Source of the DNA: a virus
Length of the DNA stretch: 64,000 nucleotides
Reading direction: 5' to 3' (one strand)
Virus record (IMG/VR): IMGVR_UViG_3300025881_000010
Span: 1-64,000 of that record
Shown: in pieces, positions 1,873 through 57,253 of the stretch
Position numbering within the stretch: the first letter of the stretch is position 1
Layout of the letters: each line of letters begins with the position of its first letter
The notes under the pieces: generated by a model
Seen by the model: the letters and a program-made list of their open reading frames with translations, nothing else
What the model was told of the DNA's origin: nothing
Databases searched by the model: none
Translations under genes and position numbers: made by a program

Positions 1873-2164
1873 TATAAGAGATCTATTCTTTCTAACTAAT
1901 GACGAGCAACCAGAACTGGAGATGCCGAATATGTTTCAATGTTGGAACATATTCAAGCATCATCCAAATTTGTCATTTACCACAATCAGAGATTTCAACA
2001 CGTATAAATATTGTGCTGTACTTAGTTCCTGTTATGATGGAATAGATAGACAAACTTTGTTCAGTTTTTCAAATTTCTCATTTGATACTGAACAACAAGC
2101 TGGAGAAGCTATGAAATCCGTAGTCTCCGAGATCAAAAGAAAGATAACCATCGAATGTAATTAG
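1859..2164 (+). CDS. hypothetical protein
   Basis: ORF overlapping the exonuclease stop. Confidence 0.55.
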   Translation: MERANIRDLFFLTNDEQPELEMPNMFQCWNIFKHHPNLSFTTIRDFNTYKYCAVLSSCYDGIDRQTLFSFSNFSFDTEQQAGEAMKSVVSEIKRKITIECN

Positions 2165-2167
2165 ATT

Positions 2168-2347
2168 ATGAAAAAATGTAATGCTTGTGAATTATATCCA
2201 GCAATAAAAGGAAAAAATAAATGTAAAAGTTGCATAGGAATAATTAATCATATTAAAGAACAGAATTTAAAACAAAATTTCACTGAATGTTCTAAGTGTG
2301 AAACACTATTTCCAAAAGGAACTGAATGTCCAGTATGTAGATTTTAA
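2168..2347 (+). CDS. 59-aa double zinc-ribbon microprotein (not in ORF track)
   Basis: MKKCNAC...CKSC...CSKC...CPVCRF*: four CxxC pairs; fills the intergenic gap. Confidence 0.7.
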   Translation: MKKCNACELYPAIKGKNKCKSCIGIINHIKEQNLKQNFTECSKCETLFPKGTECPVCRF

Positions 2348-2368
2348 TTAACCCCTTAAAACAAATTC

Positions 2369-3466
2369 ATGGGAACAAATCAAGAAGAAGTACAGGAAAT
2401 TACTGTATTAACAGAAGAACAGATTAATCAACTTCCAGACACGGTTAAGAAAAATGTAGTTTTTCTAACCGAAGAAGCTCGTCCTAAAGAGCTGATGAAA
2501 TTAAATCCATTAGCTACAGAGCTATTGAATTTAAGAGATAAAGTATCTAAATTAGAATTGAAACGTGATGACAAAAATAATATCACTAAAGAATCTATTG
2601 ATGCTTATAAAGAGTTGAAAGCTGAACAACGTACTTTCAATGGTAAGCTTACAGCTACAGCTAAAATACTTCAAAAACCTTATCAGGATATCAATAAGGG
2701 ATTCTTAGAAATTAAGAAAACTTTCAAGGAAGAATCTGATAAAGTCAAAGATGAAGCTGAAAAAATATTTGCTGATTACGAAACTGAGAAAGCTAAGAAA
2801 GCTGCAGAAAAACAAGCCAAGAAAGATGCTGAAATGAACGCTAAAATTGAAGCGGCCAATGAGCAGACAGCTGAGATTACAACAACAATGAAAAAATCGA
2901 ATGCTATCAATGCGATAAAATATGATCGTATTAAAGATGGCATTTCTTCATTAGTAACTAAATCTATACTGGATGCAAATGAGCAAGCTTTATTTAGATT
3001 GAAAGCTCAACTTGCTCAACATACTATAGAGAGTGTTTCTGAAGGAGTGGAAAATAAAGATTTACTTACTCCAGAAGATTTAGAATCACTTCAGAAAATA
3101 TTAGATGAAGCAAAGCAAGATGGTATCAGATTGATTGATGATAAGATTGATCAGTATGAAAATAATCGTCAAGCAATGATTAAAGAAAATGCTCCTGGTC
3201 CAGTTCCACCACCTCCAGTTGGAGATGGATATATGAGTGGAGTAGAAAATCCGGAACAAGCATTTTCTAATTCTAGCGATATAGAACAATCATTTTCACA
3301 TGAAGCTTTACCGGTAAACCTAAGATGGAAAACTAACGGAGAGTTTGTAGATAAGATAAAATCTATGGTAACAGCTTTAGAGTTTGCTGTAGATATGAGA
3401 TTGAAAGAATTTAAAGATCCTTCAATCTTAGAATTGAAAAATCGTTTTAACCAATTTAATTCTTAA
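2369..3466 (+). CDS. long coiled-coil protein (possibly DUF1351-like)
   Basis: E/K/A-rich heptads and Pro-rich linker; family call is recollection only. Confidence 0.6.
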   Translation: MGTNQEEVQEITVLTEEQINQLPDTVKKNVVFLTEEARPKELMKLNPLATELLNLRDKVSKLELKRDDKNNITKESIDAYKELKAEQRTFNGKLTATAKILQKPYQDINKGFLEIKKTFKEESDKVKDEAEKIFADYETEKAKKAAEKQAKKDAEMNAKIEAANEQTAEITTTMKKSNAINAIKYDRIKDGISSLVTKSILDANEQALFRLKAQLAQHTIESVSEGVENKDLLTPEDLESLQKILDEAKQDGIRLIDDKIDQYENNRQAMIKENAPGPVPPPPVGDGYMSGVENPEQAFSNSSDIEQSFSHEALPVNLRWKTNGEFVDKIKSMVTALEFAVDMRLKEFKDPSILELKNRFNQFNS

Positions 3467-4895: not shown

Positions 4896-5113
4896 TGAAA
4901 ATAGCATGGCGAAAAGTGGTACCAAATATGACCACAAGAAATGCAAAGAAATTGGCTTTAAAAATGTATGCCTCCAATTGTGGAGGCATCATTTTAACTA
5001 AAGAGCCATTTGAATATTTAAGAATTTTAAGAACATACGGAATATCAGCAAGTGCTAAACCTATTCTTAGAGATAAGAAGCTTGTTGGTTATAAATTCGT
5101 TCAAACATTTTAA
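4892..5113 (+). CDS. hypothetical basic protein
   Basis: ATGA-coupled ORF. Confidence 0.55.
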
Positions 5114-5541: not shown

Positions 5542-5666
5542 TGACAACTTTAGAAAAGAACACTCCCCACTTTTGCAAAGCCAAAATAAGCAATGGCTTT
5601 ATCGTAACAGTTTGTGATCAACAATGTAAACAATGCAATTCTATAGAACATGGAGAAACAAATTAA
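5541..5666 (+). CDS. 41-aa Cys-rich microprotein (not in ORF track)
   Basis: TAATG overlap with dut; [12 protein letters not shown]...CDQQCKQC. Confidence 0.5.
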   Translation: MTTLEKNTPHFCKAKISNGFIVTVCDQQCKQCNSIEHGETN

Positions 5667-6045
5667 ATTACCTTATCAAGAGTATGTTGAGATGCAGGAA
5701 ACCATTAAGAACCTCAACAGAAAAATGAATACTGCGATCATGCATGAAGGCAATATGATCATTGATAATCGGGCAACACCTTCCTATGATGGAGTAAAAT
5801 TGCTTCCAAAAATATCAGGTAAGATTCCAGAAGCTTTTACAAAATACAGTGAAGAATTTGAAAAGCAATCAGCACGTATTGCAGAGATCTATAATTCTTC
5901 CAGAGAAGCTGAATTGGCTTTAGATAGAAAGCATCAAAAGCTAGATGATCAATTAGATAAGAAACATTATTATAAAGATCTTTTTATTGGTATGGTTTTC
6001 TTTTGGATCACTTCTATGTATTTAGTTTTTGAATTTTTTGTATAA
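5650..6045 (+). CDS. coiled-coil protein with C-terminal TM helix
   Basis: C-terminal LFIGMVFFWITSMYLVFEFFV. Confidence 0.65.
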   Translation: MEKQIKLPYQEYVEMQETIKNLNRKMNTAIMHEGNMIIDNRATPSYDGVKLLPKISGKIPEAFTKYSEEFEKQSARIAEIYNSSREAELALDRKHQKLDDQLDKKHYYKDLFIGMVFFWITSMYLVFEFFV

Positions 6046-6115: not shown

Positions 6116-6370
6116 ATGAAAACACCATTTTTAGACGAAATGATAAAGGAATTAGGTGGCTATGAAGGAGCTGACCAATCCTACTTATCAAAAACAGGAA
6201 AACAAAAACTTAAGGAGTTTGAAGCAATAAAAGAGCAATTGGAGTTAACCGCAGTTGTGCAGGCGAAGCCAGAAAAAGATGTGTTCGAAAAGCTACATTC
6301 TTATGAAGGACCGATACCATACGGAAAATGCTACAAATGTGGTAAAGAAAAATGGGAACACGACTTTTGA
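6116..6370 (+). CDS. hypothetical protein with C-terminal CxxC..H; reads through a cassette right-end motif
   Basis: Contains GTTAACCGCAGTT at 6244-6256. Confidence 0.6.
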   Translation: MKTPFLDEMIKELGGYEGADQSYLSKTGKQKLKEFEAIKEQLELTAVVQAKPEKDVFEKLHSYEGPIPYGKCYKCGKEKWEHDF

Positions 6371-6497
6371 GCAGTTTTAAGCAAACGCCACATCTTATAA
6401 TCATTTGCGTACTGATCGGTTCTGTCAGATGTAGTTTTAAACCACGTTGCTTAAAATTGTGCCCAACTACGCAGTATAACCGCAGTAAAAAAAATAG

Positions 6498-6531
6498 GGC
6501 GTGGCTTTGAAAAAGCCAAATGAGTATGAGT
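6498..6531 (+). repeat. duplicated 5' leader, copy 1 (copy 2 at 8011-8044)
   Basis: GGCGTGGCTTTGAAAAA(G/T)CCAAATGAGTATGAGT, 33/34 identical between copies. Confidence 0.9.
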
Positions 6532-6556
6532 GAGTATTAACCTAAAAATAGAAATA

Positions 6557-6853
6557 ATGAAGAAAATATTTAAATATGAATTGAGCATTAAGGAAAAACA
6601 AGAAATTGAATTACCGTTAAATGCTGAAATTATTAGAGTTGATGATGTTGAAGGTAGGTTTTTCCTGTGGGCAATGGTTGATGTACAGATTGAAAGCGAA
6701 CCAGAAGTAGAATTTGAAAAAAGATTCCTTGAATTTTATAAGACTGGACAACCAATTAAAACTCCAAGTGAAAACTTAAAATATATTGGTTTTTGTAAAT
6801 TATTTATTATGCAGGAATTAGGATTATATGTATTTGAAAATATATCAAAATGA
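6557..6853 (+). CDS. conserved small phage protein (KIFKY..LP..AEI..LWAMVD..TGQ type)
   Basis: ATG 6557; ATGA-coupled to next gene. Confidence 0.7.
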   Translation: MKKIFKYELSIKEKQEIELPLNAEIIRVDDVEGRFFLWAMVDVQIESEPEVEFEKRFLEFYKTGQPIKTPSENLKYIGFCKLFIMQELGLYVFENISK

Positions 6854-7482
6854 AATACGGAACACTACCAAAGTATATAGGTCAACACGAAATTATATGT
6901 GATGAAATGCTATTTTATCAATATTTGCCTATTAAACTAAAAGATGGAATTGAGCCAATAATGGAAGAAAGGTTAAAGCCTTTTAAAGATTTGGTTGGAA
7001 ATATATGTTGTGATTTCGTTGGAGAATTTGGACTTGATCGTTTTATTAATAGCTATGTTTACTTAACTGCTAAGAAAATGTATCAAATGCCGGGATGCTC
7101 TTTTAATAGAGAAGGATATCATTCAGATGGATTTATGACTGATGATATAAATTATGTATGGTGCGATAAAAACCCAACTATCTTTAACTTTTCTCCTTTT
7201 AATCTAACTTTGGATGATAAAGTTTCTATGAAAGAAATGGAAGAACAAGCTAATCCAGAAGCTATTGAAATATACCCTGAAAATAGTTTATTACGATTAG
7301 ATCAGTTTCAAATTCATAAAGTTTCCGAAATCACAAAGTTAGTTCTAAGGACTTTTATTAAAGTTTCTTTTAGCTCAGATGTTTATGATTTAAAAGGTAA
7401 TTCAAAAAACTATCTTATCGATTATGATTGGGAAATGAGGGATCGTTCTATTACCAGAAATATTCCACAAAAAATAAACTAA
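6850..7482 (+). CDS. putative Fe(II)/2-oxoglutarate-dependent dioxygenase
   Basis: HxD (GYHSDG) ... distal H (IHKV) ... R (RTFIKVS), typical of the DSBH oxygenase fold. Confidence 0.6.
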   Translation: MKYGTLPKYIGQHEIICDEMLFYQYLPIKLKDGIEPIMEERLKPFKDLVGNICCDFVGEFGLDRFINSYVYLTAKKMYQMPGCSFNREGYHSDGFMTDDINYVWCDKNPTIFNFSPFNLTLDDKVSMKEMEEQANPEAIEIYPENSLLRLDQFQIHKVSEITKLVLRTFIKVSFSSDVYDLKGNSKNYLIDYDWEMRDRSITRNIPQKIN

Positions 7483-7494
7483 AAAACAAACAAA

Positions 7495-8007
7495 ATGAAA
7501 AACCTAACCTTAACACTATTATTAATTTTACCATTATCACTAGCAGCTCAATCGGATGTTTACGCCTCTTTTGAGTTTGATCCAAACAAAGCATTTAGTA
7601 TTATTGATAATCCCAGAACCGAAATGGATCACAACGGATTAGACTTTGATTTTGAAATTGGAGCAAGAGGAAATAAAATAGGAATGTATATTTTTTACGG
7701 TCGCTTCGAGAATGCTAACTATCAAAATTACGGTGTAGGATTAGATTACTATCTTGCAAAAGGTTATCGCTATGATATTGGAGTAGGTGCAAACATTCAC
7801 AATATAATGAGGCATCAAACAATTGGAAATGCATCTAACATGGCTTGGGCAACTTATTTAGGTTGGTCGGTTCGTAGTAGATATACTTATTGGATATTAC
7901 CTAAAATTGGAGTATCCGGAGTAATTCAATATACTAGAAGACCTGATATTAATGTAGGTGGAATAGTAGAGGGTAGAGTTGGAGTTGTGGTTAAAGTGGG
8001 GCGGTAG
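7495..8007 (+). CDS. small outer-membrane beta-barrel protein
   Basis: Signal peptide cleaved LAA|Q; repeated amphipathic Gly/Tyr-rich strands (YGVGLDYY, IGVGANI, GRVGVVVKV). Confidence 0.7.
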   Translation: MKNLTLTLLLILPLSLAAQSDVYASFEFDPNKAFSIIDNPRTEMDHNGLDFDFEIGARGNKIGMYIFYGRFENANYQNYGVGLDYYLAKGYRYDIGVGANIHNIMRHQTIGNASNMAWATYLGWSVRSRYTYWILPKIGVSGVIQYTRRPDINVGGIVEGRVGVVVKVGR

Positions 8008-8010
8008 GAT

Positions 8011-8044
8011 GGCGTGGCTTTGAAAAATCCAAATGAGTATGAGT
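8011..8044 (+). repeat. duplicated 5' leader, copy 2
   Basis: Near-identical to 6498-6531. Confidence 0.9.
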
Positions 8045-8072
8045 AAGAATACTAACAATTAAAATAATAATT

Positions 8073-8564
8073 ATGAAATTAATATCAATGACAGACTTTG
8101 TAGAGAAAATCAGGAAAGAATCAAATGTTTCTCCATTTAATGATGAACAAAAAGAAATGGATAATGCTGAATTATATAAGATATTTAATTATGCTCATTT
8201 CCTAAAACAACCACTAAAACTTGAAATGTTTGTGCCATGTGATGAGAAAGGTAATGTTTTGGAAAAGCCTAAGGATTATCAAAAATATATTAAACATAAT
8301 TTTTACGCTTCTAAAGTTTGTAAAACCTATCAAGAAGCCAAAGAAAAAGTGTTGTTTGAAAGTTTTGAAATTGACCTTGAAGAAGGGTGTGGATTTCCTT
8401 TTTTAAATAATCACCCACCTTTTTTCTTTTCAATAGACAATAAATGGGATATTTCTTCTTGTTTTAAAATAATAGAAGATTTGGAAGGCTATAATATTCA
8501 ATTAACAAATACAGCACTAAAACAATTAGGACTTGAAACAAGTATGAACGTCAGCGCCATTTAA
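8073..8564 (+). CDS. hypothetical phage protein (cassette cargo)
   Basis: ORF with A-rich leader; ends at a cassette right arm. Confidence 0.75.
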   Translation: MKLISMTDFVEKIRKESNVSPFNDEQKEMDNAELYKIFNYAHFLKQPLKLEMFVPCDEKGNVLEKPKDYQKYIKHNFYASKVCKTYQEAKEKVLFESFEIDLEEGCGFPFLNNHPPFFFSIDNKWDISSCFKIIEDLEGYNIQLTNTALKQLGLETSMNVSAI

Positions 8565-8779
8565 AAAATTGCGGTTATGCGCAGTTGGCTACTTTGTTTT
8601 GCAAACGTATCTCGTTAATACTTAAAGCGTACAGATCGGCTTATTTTCGGATTACGATTAACACAATGCAAAATATTGTTGCCAACTACGCTGTATAAGA
8701 GCAGAGCCTTTTAAAAACTAACAAAATTAAAAACTATAAACATTAACAGCTTCTTGATTGAAGCCCTAAAATTAAAATT

Positions 8780-9010
8780 ATGACTGAATTTAAAGATTAC
8801 TTAGTAGAATGTAACAATCCTAAATCCTTCGATGAAACTATACAACAACTTGGAAAAGCTGTGTTACATCAAAATCACAAAGGTGAATATGAAAAACACG
8901 AAGGTTATTATTTGATGAGAATAATAGGAGATCCTGGTTATGTAAAATTTGCTATACAAAATCAAGGATATGGTAGAATTATAAAAGAAGCTGAAACGCC
9001 AAATTCTTAA
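8780..9010 (+). CDS. hypothetical protein (single-gene cassette cargo)
   Basis: ORF enclosed by IR arms 8684-8707 / 9025-9045. Confidence 0.75.
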   Translation: MTEFKDYLVECNNPKSFDETIQQLGKAVLHQNHKGEYEKHEGYYLMRIIGDPGYVKFAIQNQGYGRIIKEAETPNS

Positions 9011-9223
9011 AAAACGGAATCTAAGCTTTGCTCTTATACGCAGTTCTTTACAGTTGTGGTGTACGCTAAAAATCTTAAGACAAATGTGCTATGGTGCGTT
9101 AGACTCATTCAGCACCACTATTGTATAGAACTACGCGGGTTAACAAATGAGCCTTTGAAACGAAATTACCTTATTGAAAACGAATTATAAACCGCTTCTT
9201 ATTGGAGCAGAAAAAATCATAAT

Positions 9224-9427
9224 ATGGATATTTTAATACAAATGAAAAAACAATCTTTAAAGAATTATGAAAAAGATTTAGAGAAGAATCTAGGAGAATT
9301 TTATGATGCTTGTGAAGATAATGATGAAGAAAAAATGCTGAAAGTTGCTAAAAAAGGAGCAGGTATAAAAATGATGATTGATTATTTAAAAAAAGATCTT
9401 AAAGAAGCGGAAAACTCTAATTATTAG
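9224..9427 (+). CDS. hypothetical helical protein (single-gene cassette cargo)
   Basis: ORF enclosed by IR arms 9129-9152 / 9440-9460. Confidence 0.75.
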   Translation: MDILIQMKKQSLKNYEKDLEKNLGEFYDACEDNDEEKMLKVAKKGAGIKMMIDYLKKDLKEAENSNY

Positions 9428-9607
9428 AAATTTATACGAGCTTTTTTGTTAACCGCAGTTCTTGCCAGTTTTTTGCAAACGTATTATTCTGAATATCTCC
9501 CGCGCACAAATCGGTTATTATTCGGATAAGTTGGATCTTAAAGCAAAATATTGGCTGGAACTCGGAATAAGCGCAACTTTTTCCTAAATAACTGCGTTTA
9601 TTTTGAC

Positions 9608-9639
9608 AAAAAAAAGCCATCTCGTAGGGAGATGGCTTT
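9608..9639. terminator. intrinsic terminator at the convergence of the + and - gene blocks
   Basis: AAAGCCATCTC-GTAGG-GAGATGGCTTT with A8 run (U-tail on - strand). Confidence 0.85.
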
Positions 9640-43486: not shown

Positions 43487-44013
43487 ATATATAACGTTTT
43501 ATTAAGTTTGCCCCTCTTAAATTCCGAGCTAAATATAGGCAATAAATCTTTGTTAAAATTATCTTTATATAAATTTTCGATCTCTGGTAGTCGATTGCTT
43601 GAGCCTGTAAGCTTTTTTATCTTGACCATATAGAACATTTTTTGACTAGCTCTCATGTACCAATATAAACCTATAGCACCATCACTTCTACTGAATTTCT
43701 TTTCAGCTTTTCCTTTGGCCATTTTTCGAGCCCATTTTTTATAAATTACTTTCTTTAAAAATCCACCAAGAAAAAAATATATTGGAGATTCATTCATATA
43801 GAAATCATAGAAGTAAACTTTAAAATATTCTAATATGATTTTTTTATATAATGAAAGTGGTACCGGTTGAGGTTTCTTTTTTCTAGTCTTTTCACCAAGA
43901 CAAAAAAGAGAAGGCGGGTACCTTCTCTTTTCAAGTTGAAACATGTCAAAAAAATATTTTACACTAAGTACTTCAATTTTAGATTTCTCTTTTTTCTTGA
44001 TCATCTTTAGCAT
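43471..44013 (-). CDS. basic protein, probable crAss IHF/HU-like structural-module gene
   Basis: Lys-rich, YKKII..F..LGG; synteny between ring genes. Confidence 0.5.
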   Translation of the reverse strand: MLKMIKKKEKSKIEVLSVKYFFDMFQLEKRRYPPSLFCLGEKTRKKKPQPVPLSLYKKIILEYFKVYFYDFYMNESPIYFFLGGFLKKVIYKKWARKMAKGKAEKKFSRSDGAIGLYWYMRASQKMFYMVKIKKLTGSSNRLPEIENLYKDNFNKDLLPIFSSEFKRGKLNKTLYICTPI

Positions 44014-55600: not shown

Positions 55601-57253
55601 TTAATATTGTTGAGGTTTGTAGATATCTGGATCTACGATTACTGATTCCGTTGTTAATATCATTCCCATAATTGAGACAGCGCTTTCTAAAGCTACACGA
55701 GTAACTTTCTTTGGGTCCATAATTCCAGCTTTGATCATATCATCTACATACTTGATCTCACGAGCATCAAATCCCATATTGAAATTCGATTCCATTTCCT
55801 GAATTCTTTCAATAGGAATATTATATCCTACATTTTCTACAATTTGTTCAAATGGTTTTCTTATTGCTTTAAGTAATACCTCAGCGCCTTTCTTACGATC
55901 TTCGTTATTACTAATGCTTCCAATATTCATTTGACTTAAACTAAGAAGTGCAGTACCACCACCCGGGATAACACCTTCTTCGTATGCCGCTTTAATTGCA
56001 TAAAGCGCATCCGTTACACGAGCTTGCTTCTCTAATAATTCTGTATCACTAAGACCTCCAATATGAATAAATGATAAACCTTCAGTCAATCTAGAAATTC
56101 TAGAATTGATTATTGATTTTTGATATCCATCAAGATTTTTAGTTTTCAATTTATCGCGAAGTTCTGAAGCTCTCTTTTCAGTATGAGCATCAATTTTTTC
56201 ATACTCTTCATCTTTAAGACCAATCGGCCCTTTAAGAGAACTTGTATGTTGACCGATAGTGATCTCTTCAGATTGTGGTAAATAATCTAAAATGTTTTCA
56301 TTGTCCAAAGAATAGAAATCTAATCCTTCATCAGTGAAAATTTCTTTTCCCATTACAATTGAAAGATCATTAAGAATATCAATCTTATCATTTCCGAAAC
56401 CAGGAACACGACAAACACAAATTTTGAAATTCTTTTTGACTTTATTCTCAGCCATAATATTCAAAACAAATTCGTCGATATCTTCACAAATGATCAATAA
56501 CGATTTATCACCTTCATGAATCTGAGTAAGCAAGATATCTAAATTGTCATAAGGCTCAATGTTCGTAATCTTTTTATCTGTAATGTAGATATACGGATTT
56601 TCAAGAACACAAACTTCTTCTTCTTTTCTGTTCATGAATACTCTGGACTTATAACCCATAGGTAAAGTCAATCCATCTACAGTACTTAAAAAAGTTTTCT
56701 CAGTATGAGATCTTTTGATATTTACAATTCCCTGTTTTCCGGAAGTCTTGAAAGCATCAAAAACTACATTTGCAATTTCTTCATCATTGTTAGAAGATAT
56801 CAAGGCAACTTGTTTTAGAATTTTATTATTCTCTTTGTTGTCCTCGGTAACATCTTTAGATAATTTTGCCAATTGATCAACAATCAATCTTGCCATATCA
56901 TCCATTCCTCTTTTCATTTCTAAGAGGTTTGTATCTGGAGCTTGCTTTAATCCTTCAATAAGAATAGCTTCTCCAATAACCGTAGCGGTAGTGGTACCAT
57001 CTCCAGCTTTACTATCAGAACTATTTGCAATATCCTGGATTGATTCAATAGCAATCATTTCAAAAGGATCTTCAGAAGCCATGTGTCCAGCAACGGTAAC
57101 ACCATCTTTTGTTGAGAATGGTCTTTCATCCTTATTTCTAATTAGCACATTTCGTCCACTTGGACCTAATGTCGCTTTAACTGCTTTCGCAATTGAAGAA
57201 ACCCCGGAAGCTAATTTCTTCCGGGCATCTTCACCATATAGTACTTTATTCAT
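55601..57253 (-). CDS. groEL: GroEL-like chaperonin
   Basis: TLGPSGRNV, TKDGVTVA, GDGTTTAT, GVIPGGG, GIMDP.KV. Confidence 0.96.
   Translation of the reverse strand: MNKVLYGEDARKKLASGVSSIAKAVKATLGPSGRNVLIRNKDERPFSTKDGVTVAGHMASEDPFEMIAIESIQDIANSSDSKAGDGTTTATVIGEAILIEGLKQAPDTNLLEMKRGMDDMARLIVDQLAKLSKDVTEDNKENNKILKQVALISSNNDEEIANVVFDAFKTSGKQGIVNIKRSHTEKTFLSTVDGLTLPMGYKSRVFMNRKEEEVCVLENPYIYITDKKITNIEPYDNLDILLTQIHEGDKSLLIICEDIDEFVLNIMAENKVKKNFKICVCRVPGFGNDKIDILNDLSIVMGKEIFTDEGLDFYSLDNENILDYLPQSEEITIGQHTSSLKGPIGLKDEEYEKIDAHTEKRASELRDKLKTKNLDGYQKSIINSRISRLTEGLSFIHIGGLSDTELLEKQARVTDALYAIKAAYEEGVIPGGGTALLSLSQMNIGSISNNEDRKKGAEVLLKAIRKPFEQIVENVGYNIPIERIQEMESNFNMGFDAREIKYVDDMIKAGIMDPKKVTRVALESAVSIMGMILTTESVIVDPDIYKPQQY

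Follow-up and report, generated by a model that had tools for sequence, protein, structure and literature searches.

The window analysed here is a stretch of 64,000 nt, the first 64 kb of the 82.5-kb IMG/VR virus record IMGVR_UViG_3300025881_000010, which is rated complete by CheckV. Between positions 6371 and 9603 lies a compact locus in which small cargo genes alternate with long intergenic hairpins, and on the + strand hairpins and cargo helices follow one another in a chain, 0–1 nt apart. We read this locus, with a probability of about 0.6, as a short cassette array of an integron-like system without a recombinase of its own, similar to the CALINs (clusters of attC sites without an integrase). 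The elements of the array are given below (ORF, open reading frame; U1–U3, units with their cargo; E0–E3, intergenic hairpins).

6371–6472, + strand: E0, the first intergenic hairpin (GCAGTT...AACTACGC), directly after the stop of ORF 6116–6370; 14-bp stem 6371–6384/6447–6460.
6474–6486, + strand: left arm of U1, 13 of 15 positions paired with 8568–8580; G:T at arm position 12 in the register of an earlier note on this DNA.
6557–8564, + strand: cargo of U1, four ORFs (6557–6853, 6850–7482, 7495–8007 and 8073–8564).
8568–8580, + strand: right arm of U1, cognate pairing with 6474–6486.
8581–8691, + strand: hairpin E1; 25-nt arms, 80% complementary; DNA fold z-score −3.55.
8693–8707, + strand: left arm of U2, 15 of 15 positions paired with 9025–9039, one G:T.
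8780–9010, + strand: cargo ORF of U2, 76 aa, no family.
9025–9039, + strand: right arm of U2, cognate pairing with 8693–8707.
9040–9136, + strand: hairpin E2; fold z-score −2.48; best, non-significant match of the locus to the canonical hairpin model R1 (14.1 bits, E 0.85).
9138–9152, + strand: left arm of U3; canonical form from 9139, GTTAAC...G at position 11.
9224–9427, + strand: cargo ORF of U3, 67 aa, no family.
9440–9454, + strand: right arm of U3, ends ...GTTAAC C; 14 of 15 positions paired, one G:T and one T:T.
9455–9566, + strand: hairpin E3; 3' base AACTCGG instead of AACTACGC; fold z-score −2.70.
9567–9603, + strand: possible empty terminal unit; 10-bp stem 9567–9576/9594–9603 with one G:T and a 17-nt loop; z-score −1.58, weak.

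The earlier note, made from the letters of the sequence, had proposed three units with unit-specific complementary arms, and all the arms that it quoted were found where it had placed them. Each of the three units (U1, 6474–8580; U2, 8693–9039; U3, 9138–9454) is closed by its own arms of 13–15 bp. When every left arm was compared with every right arm in a register fixed by the conserved cores, with G:T pairs allowed, the cognate combinations paired at 13, 15 and 14 of 15 positions for U1, U2 and U3, respectively, and the non-cognate combinations at 6–11 of 15. Random register pairs drawn from the window reached 13 or more pairs in 43 of 200,000 cases (2e-4 per pair). Since three consecutive cognate matches occur in a fixed register beside conserved cores, at 2e-4 each, the pairing is not due to chance. 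Inverted repeats of at least 13 nt are by themselves frequent in the genome (58 and 52 on the two strands), and it is the fixed register and the cognate specificity, not the inverted repeats alone, that carry the significance. Each unit contains one G:T wobble, located at the same arm position in all three, and every arm wobble in the window is G:T on the + strand, as the note had also observed. The complementary strand would therefore carry C:A mismatches at these positions and fold less well.

The four spacers E0–E3, which had been overlooked, are long imperfect hairpins of 97–112 nt with DNA fold z-scores of −1.3, −3.6, −2.5 and −2.7, respectively. Their inner stems differ in sequence and retain complementarity, and E0, E1 and E3 have a loop sequence in common. 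An inner G:T pair is present in each of the four, as read by hand and unscored from the aligned arms and, for E2, from the R1 alignment. The hairpin base is formed by GCGCAGTT at the 5' end and AACTACGC at the 3' end of one and the same spacer, which pair apart from one C:A mismatch. The sequence AACTACGC occurs three times in 64 kb, always within the locus, where 0.55 occurrences are expected, and CGCAGTT occurs four times on the + strand of the locus. This local pairing accounts, without any bulge, for the three extra bases that the note had assigned to each left arm. It also removes the ground for the proposed ‘inside-out’ geometry, in which each gene would sit within its own AAC...GTT inverted repeat: the AAC and GTT used for that proposal are the two sides of each intergenic hairpin base, where they pair locally and stand in the opposite order to that of attC. 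At the site edges we read ...TTATGC/GTATAA... for E1, ...TTATAC/GGTTAA... for E2 and ...GTTAAC/AATAAG... for E3. The R'' (RYYYAAC) 5' edge and R' (GTTRRRY) 3' edge were not found at the sites, and GTTAAC is present in the U3 arms only.

The cassette of this array is probably a hairpin together with the left arm, cargo and right arm that follow it, which would give C1 at 6371–8580, C2 at 8581–9039 and C3 at 9040–9454, with exact predicted boundaries at 6370/6371, 8580/8581, 9039/9040 and 9454/9455. An empty cassette, C4, is possible at 9455–9603. The empty terminal site proposed in the earlier note does contain the 10-bp hairpin 9567–9576/9594–9603, but it folds weakly (z −1.6).

The protein encoded at 8073–8564 provided the entry to a wider family. 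It matched a gene of cultured Flavobacterium phages, namely the cargo of a unit that we call ‘G’ in Lillamyvirus arrays, and the locus around that gene was then read. An array architecture like that of the window was found in the phages hattifnatt9-1, morran9-1, sniff9-2 and hemulen6-1 (records MN812207, MN812208, MN812219 and MN812230; Lillamyvirus, Hattifnattvirus), with 9–13 units per phage and inter-unit hairpins of 56–67 or 111–122 nt. All 17 distinct arm sequences from these four phages start with GTTA, end with TAAC, are 13–15 bp long and carry a G:T pair at position 11, so that the arm form of the family is GTTA-N6-G ... T-N6-TAAC with an invariant G:T. The cores of this wider family are located at the inner end of the cargo arms (...TAAC, hairpin, GTTA...), which is the topology of attC (AAC at the 5' side, GTT at the 3' side) and again not an inside-out one. 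The motif derived from the cultured phages matched 105 IMG/VR stretches with 207 unique arms, and position 11 was the sole G:T wobble in 141 of these. In an alignment of 68 hairpins, compensatory changes were observed in 17 of 18 stem pairs (covariation score 0.60, 0.14 in shuffles), together with two invariant G:T pairs; a G:T within the stem is present in 68 of 68.

The four cultured phages do not have their units in a common order. An identical hairpin of 67 nt precedes unit G behind three different upstream units, and the hairpin after unit G varies with the downstream unit. A constant hairpin before G and a variable one after it indicate that the moving module consists of a hairpin plus the unit that follows, with breakpoints at TAAC|GTT. 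Judged from these genome comparisons, hairpin-plus-unit modules change place and order between Flavobacterium phages. The shuffling with arm-bounded breakpoints that had been suggested for relatives is thus seen in Flavobacterium phages, but not in the phage of the window. In hemulen6-1 the same or nearly the same hairpin precedes units D and L. Two different cargo genes of morran9-1, gp015 and gp010, are enclosed by the same pair of arms (L131, 8852–9171 and 10343–10583), and arms are therefore not strictly one-to-one with cargo. In the same phage a DNA methyltransferase gene and a small ORF (L131, 10655–11632 and 9991–10230, respectively) begin inside hairpin loops and read through the hairpin 3' arm and the left arm of the unit, so that these sites double as coding sequence.

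The motif is also carried by bacterial chromosomes. It was detected in 151 of 401 Flavobacterium genomes searched, with up to 68 copies per genome (reversed control pattern, 0–2). One genome (G394, contig C4) contains arrays of at least 17 and at least 13 canonical units, and another (G150, contig C13) an array of 10. Three host arrays, in G394, G150 and G329 (contig C26), end beside tyrosine recombinases. The recombinase gene at the G394 array end is oriented divergently and encodes 405 aa (Arm-DNA-bind_5, SAM_5, Phage_integrase), and the geometry of recombinase and array is the same in G329. For the G150 recombinase (L265, 2301–4043) the best family was the integron integrase TIGR02249 (221.7 bits, below the cut-off of 265) and the best solved relative was IntI4 (PDB 2A3V, E 3e-42). 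A co-occurring tyrosine recombinase, which the earlier note had suggested looking for, is therefore found beside these three host arrays, but none is encoded in the genome of the window's phage. A Drt4/Drt3b-like reverse transcriptase gene (L265, 4144–5673, + strand) is located between the IntI-like recombinase of G150 and the first cassette. A short recombinase at a contig end of genome G006 was considered as an array partner and rejected, there being no array at that place.

Phages and hosts differ in the strand on which the cargo lies. In all 105 phage units for which the coding strand could be decided, the cargo is on the G:T strand, and in all 26 such host units it is on the opposite one; no exceptions were found on either side. 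The host arrays match classical integrons, in which the top strand carries the genes and the bottom strand folds better. Read on the host top strand, the module boundary ...AAC|GTTA... falls at the integron G|TT position, and the start of the cassette is complementary to the outer box of the cassette's own site. A cassette of a classical integron begins with about 7 bases that can pair with the R'' box of the attC belonging to it. The same complementarity of the cassette start to the outer box of its own site is present in the window and is longer. The gene-enclosing arms are then a lengthened form of a known integron property, which places the gene between sites and not in the loop of a site, and a split and extended R box, of the kind found in integron cassettes, is the best description of them. 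The cargo of the window and all its G:T wobbles are on the + strand, so the window lacks the integron feature of cargo opposite to the folding strand. Since the conserved wobbles are absent from host mRNA, a role at the DNA level is the more economical one for the family.

The array of the window has in common with the Flavobacterium phage and host arrays the alternation of cargo helix and hairpin without a linker, the arm length, a wobble at the same arm position, the inner G:T of the hairpins and a C:A mismatch near the hairpin base. With the phage arrays it also has in common the cargo on the G:T strand and one cargo family (8073–8564). U3 fits the canonical arm pattern (GTTAAC, G:T at 11) with an extra T:T; U1 and U2 have the arm length and wobble position of the canonical family, but TATA at positions 1–4, so that TATAA takes the place of GTTA as their core. 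At the hairpin base GCAGTT/AACTACGC replaces GGCTTTG/CAAAACC, there is no unpaired GTTyy spacer behind TAAC, and the hairpins stay below significance in the canonical covariance model. Since the cores of the window (TTATRC/GTATAA; GCAGTT/AACTACGC) differ from TAAC/GTTA, the cassettes probably stem from a source that had a site type of its own; that source may have been a single one, as the loop sequence common to E0, E1 and E3 is what is seen in one sedentary array. On balance, we regard the array as belonging, as a divergent member without a recombinase, to an integron-like cassette system common to Bacteroidota phages and their hosts.

With respect to known systems, the array of the window conforms, as regards the integrase, to the definition of a CALIN, with no PF00589 match in the 82.5 kb of the phage, and is not a complete integron. 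CALINs have been described in virulent phages, including a Polaribacter phage and no Flavobacterium phage (Qi et al. 2023, PMC9892861). Our literature searches found no description of the Flavobacterium arrays. Polaribacter phage P12002L was rejected as a family member; its sites look like classical attC sites, without long arms. Integrons and CALINs resemble the array of the window, whose cassettes appear promoterless, in the lack of cassette promoters, in the single orientation of the cassettes, in imperfect hairpins of about 100 nt between them (attC sites range from about 57 to 141 nt), in the complementarity of the cassette start to the outer box of its own site and in strand-asymmetric folding. 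The wider family additionally has the order AAC at the 5' and GTT at the 3' side of the site, and tyrosine recombinases, among them an IntI-like one, adjoin its host arrays. The modular cassette array of integron or attC kind proposed in the earlier note is supported. The differences from integrons are that the complementarity of the cassette ends extends over 13–15 bp instead of about 7, that fixed G:T wobbles, and not (only) extrahelical bases, mark the choice of strand, and that the phage cargo lies on the folding strand, so that the hairpin stands ahead of the gene and not behind it. In addition, the AAC/GTT core is absent from two of the three units of the window, and neither IntI nor attI was identified.

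If the integron-like reading is correct, a host tyrosine recombinase of IntI or Xer type would bind the folded hairpin on single-stranded DNA and exchange strands at the hairpin edge. The excised cassette would be a circle, in which the two arms could stack on the hairpin to form one long hairpin; such stacking would be the reason for complementary cassette ends, that is, for a split and lengthened R box. The fixed G:T wobbles would select the strand. Gene capture of the integron type would then extend beyond bacterial chromosomes and plasmids and would shape the accessory gene sets (methylase, anti-defence-like and of no assigned function) of lytic Bacteroidota phages, including one of crAss type. 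The site design, with its end helix of 13–15 bp, strand choice by G:T and cargo flipped relative to the hosts, could also inform how folded DNA sites are recognized.

Several observations weigh against this reading. The GTTA/TAAC core is missing from U1 and U2. In a search with model R1, built from the 68 canonical hairpins, E0, E1 and E3 were not among the matches listed, and the match to E2, the best in the locus, ranked below one unrelated match in the window. The hairpin type GCAGTT...AACTACGC was found nowhere else in pattern searches of IMG/VR and of metagenome contigs, and appears by these searches to be private to the window. The pattern GCAGTT..AACTACGC gave more than 120 single unspecific matches in IMG/VR, and a sharper pattern with ATTG gave 34 single matches, none with the flanks or the fold of E0–E3. 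The left-arm pattern gave 28 matches in metagenome contigs, none with GCAGTT upstream, and blastn of the spacers against cultured phages returned short chance matches only. The one public sequencing run listed as containing the phage, a DNA run available as contigs and probably the source of the record, showed a single contiguous form and no joints; no RNA run was among those listed. No tyrosine recombinase was found in five other array-bearing phage records, in addition to the phage of the window; gp001 of Lillamyvirus and its neighbours are not recombinases. Two different recombinase types flank the host arrays, so the acting host recombinase is not singled out, and no recombinase lies near the first array of G394 or near the G006 units. 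Finally, every helix of the phage arrays is on the mRNA strand, and all wobbles are G:U on the sense strand, both in the window and in the 105 decidable phage units.

The last of these points leads to a device acting at the RNA level, in which the 13–15 bp helices closing the cistrons, together with the hairpins, would be ribonuclease substrates or shields, or translation gates, in a polycistronic early transcript, and would give stable single-gene mRNAs or set relative expression. The absence of a recombinase from the array-bearing phages would fit it as well, and so would cassettes that look promoterless and have one common terminator; the Lillamyvirus ORFs that begin in hairpin loops and read through arms place these helices certainly within mRNAs. 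RNase III processing stems, as in rRNA operons and the early mRNAs of T7, are similar in that long-range stems surround a functional RNA, or hairpins separate cistrons, with G:U tolerated. The family differs from them in having cargo antisense to the folding strand as well. With host cargo antisense to the G:T strand in all 26 decidable units, the conserved wobbles cannot serve host mRNA. An RNA signal also leaves unexplained the movement of modules between phages with breakpoints at helix junctions. No Rfam family reached threshold, and the array-bearing crAss-type phage encodes no RNase III. The RNA-processing stems that the earlier note had offered as its alternative are thus a possible account of the phage arrays but a disfavoured one for the family, and for the locus as a whole we consider an RNA device unlikely. 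A combined view, in which Bacteroidota phages run a flipped integron-like system whose mRNA-strand hairpins and 15-bp helices have a second job in closing cistrons on the transcript, and in which the crAss-type phage has a private, non-canonical site type, is likewise considered unlikely. With such a private site, the host would be expected to have a recombinase of another specificity, or else the helices would be kept intact by an RNA function that needs no recombinase.

Shuffling mediated by repeats would dispense with both a dedicated recombinase and a transcript role. The promoter-early stem-loops (PeSLs), reportedly described by Arbiol et al. in 2010 as mobile regulatory cassettes of T4-type phages, are repeated intergenic stem-loops on either side of small accessory ORFs, located in a hyperplastic phage region and presumed to bring about modular shuffling, as might be envisaged for the window. 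Homologous recombination between regulatory or terminator-like hairpins would then move the genes, and the arms would be a by-product. The hairpin that is the same or nearly the same before units D and L of hemulen6-1 shows exchange or conversion between hairpins, and the common loop sequence of E0, E1 and E3 agrees with this. PeSLs, however, contain a promoter and lack complementary ends specific to each cassette, whereas no promoter motif was found in E0–E3, and such shuffling does not explain arms of 13–15 bp that covary across 0.3–2.1 kb, a wobble position fixed in more than 150 distinct arms or the association of host arrays with tyrosine recombinases; we hold it to be improbable. Still less probable is a decayed relic, a once-functional canonical array whose sites have drifted and which is now functionless. 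The TATAA cores, the private hairpin base and the failure of the canonical model would be products of that drift, U1 with its four ORFs and duplicated leader looks as if internal sites had been lost, and a junction-like sequence is present inside an ORF (6244–6256). Yet the arms still pair at 13–15 of 15 positions with the wobble position kept in all three units, and the four hairpins still fold and retain the inner G:T, features which neutral drift would erase first.

Four further elements accompany the array.

6244–6256, + strand: orphan remnant of a junction, consisting of an arm end and a hairpin start; lies within ORF 6116–6370 and repeats 9448–9460 exactly over 13 nt.
6498–6537, + strand: 40-nt leader repeat, copy 1, a small GGCTTTGAAAAAGCC hairpin plus AAATGAGTATGAGT, before ORF 6557; 93% identical to 8011–8050.
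8011–8050, + strand: 40-nt leader repeat, copy 2, before ORF 8073.
9613–9639, both strands: bidirectional intrinsic terminator, common to the end of the array operon and the convergent gene of 3969 aa.

The first of these had been described as an orphan right arm. It is an exact repetition, with a chance expectation of about 0.002 in 64 kb, lies within an ORF and comprises an arm end joined to a hairpin start. The second leader copy is possibly the trace of a former cassette boundary inside U1. Of the four ORFs of U1, 6557–6853 belongs to DUF7352, 6850–7482 to phrog_1843 and 8073–8564 to phrog_12560, and 7495–8007 has a signal-peptide-like start. Homologues of the 8073–8564 protein in four bacterial genomes were in no case inside canonical units. 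In the whole window Rfam gave nothing at gathering score; with a relaxed E-value, weak chance-level matches appeared, the best being DUF805 RNA with 25.5 bits against the required 51. This sub-threshold match is overlapped by the first leader copy. The top match of model R1 in the window, likewise non-significant (15 bits), is at 43490–43557 (TATAACGTTT...TTTGTTAAA), far from the array, and is probably due to chance.

The virus carrying the array is a marine crAss-type phage. It is tailed and encodes a crAss-type portal (phrog_6547), a large terminase, a GroEL-like chaperonin and a giant ORF of 3969 aa; the full-length chaperonin gene is at 55601–57253 on the minus strand (phrog_5725, E 7e-123). 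The array comes last in a + strand operon, which is convergent with the giant gene. None of the spacers contains the Bacteroidota −7 motif (TAnnTTTG), and sigma-70-like matches there were at the level of shuffled sequences; together with the single terminator after the array, this makes the cassettes appear promoterless. The absence of a recombinase, noted earlier for the window, was extended to the whole 82.5-kb genome, in which searches for PF00589, PF01797 and PF00239 were all negative (no tyrosine or serine recombinase and no Y1 transposase). Relatives of this phage with 62–69% aa identity, retrieved through the C-terminus of the giant protein, have a common gene content up to position 5113 and diverge beyond it, so that the array lies in a variable region; the array is absent from these relatives, and no breakpoints are readable there. 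A homology search with the neighbouring ORF 5650–6045 gave no relative. In the corresponding variable region of one array-free relative (L127, about 2075–2390, minus strand), an 18-nt motif, ACAGATAACACGAACTAA, closes three consecutive small genes and may be another kind of shuffling repeat. A further repeated arrangement was observed in contig C10 of the bacterial genome G006 (L247, 13363–13852 and 18036–18666; L248, 4605–4974), where an element of about 130 nt resembling a tRNA 3' end, followed by ...TTATTTATAAC, stands in three copies beside cassette-like genes, which suggests tandem integration events at one site.

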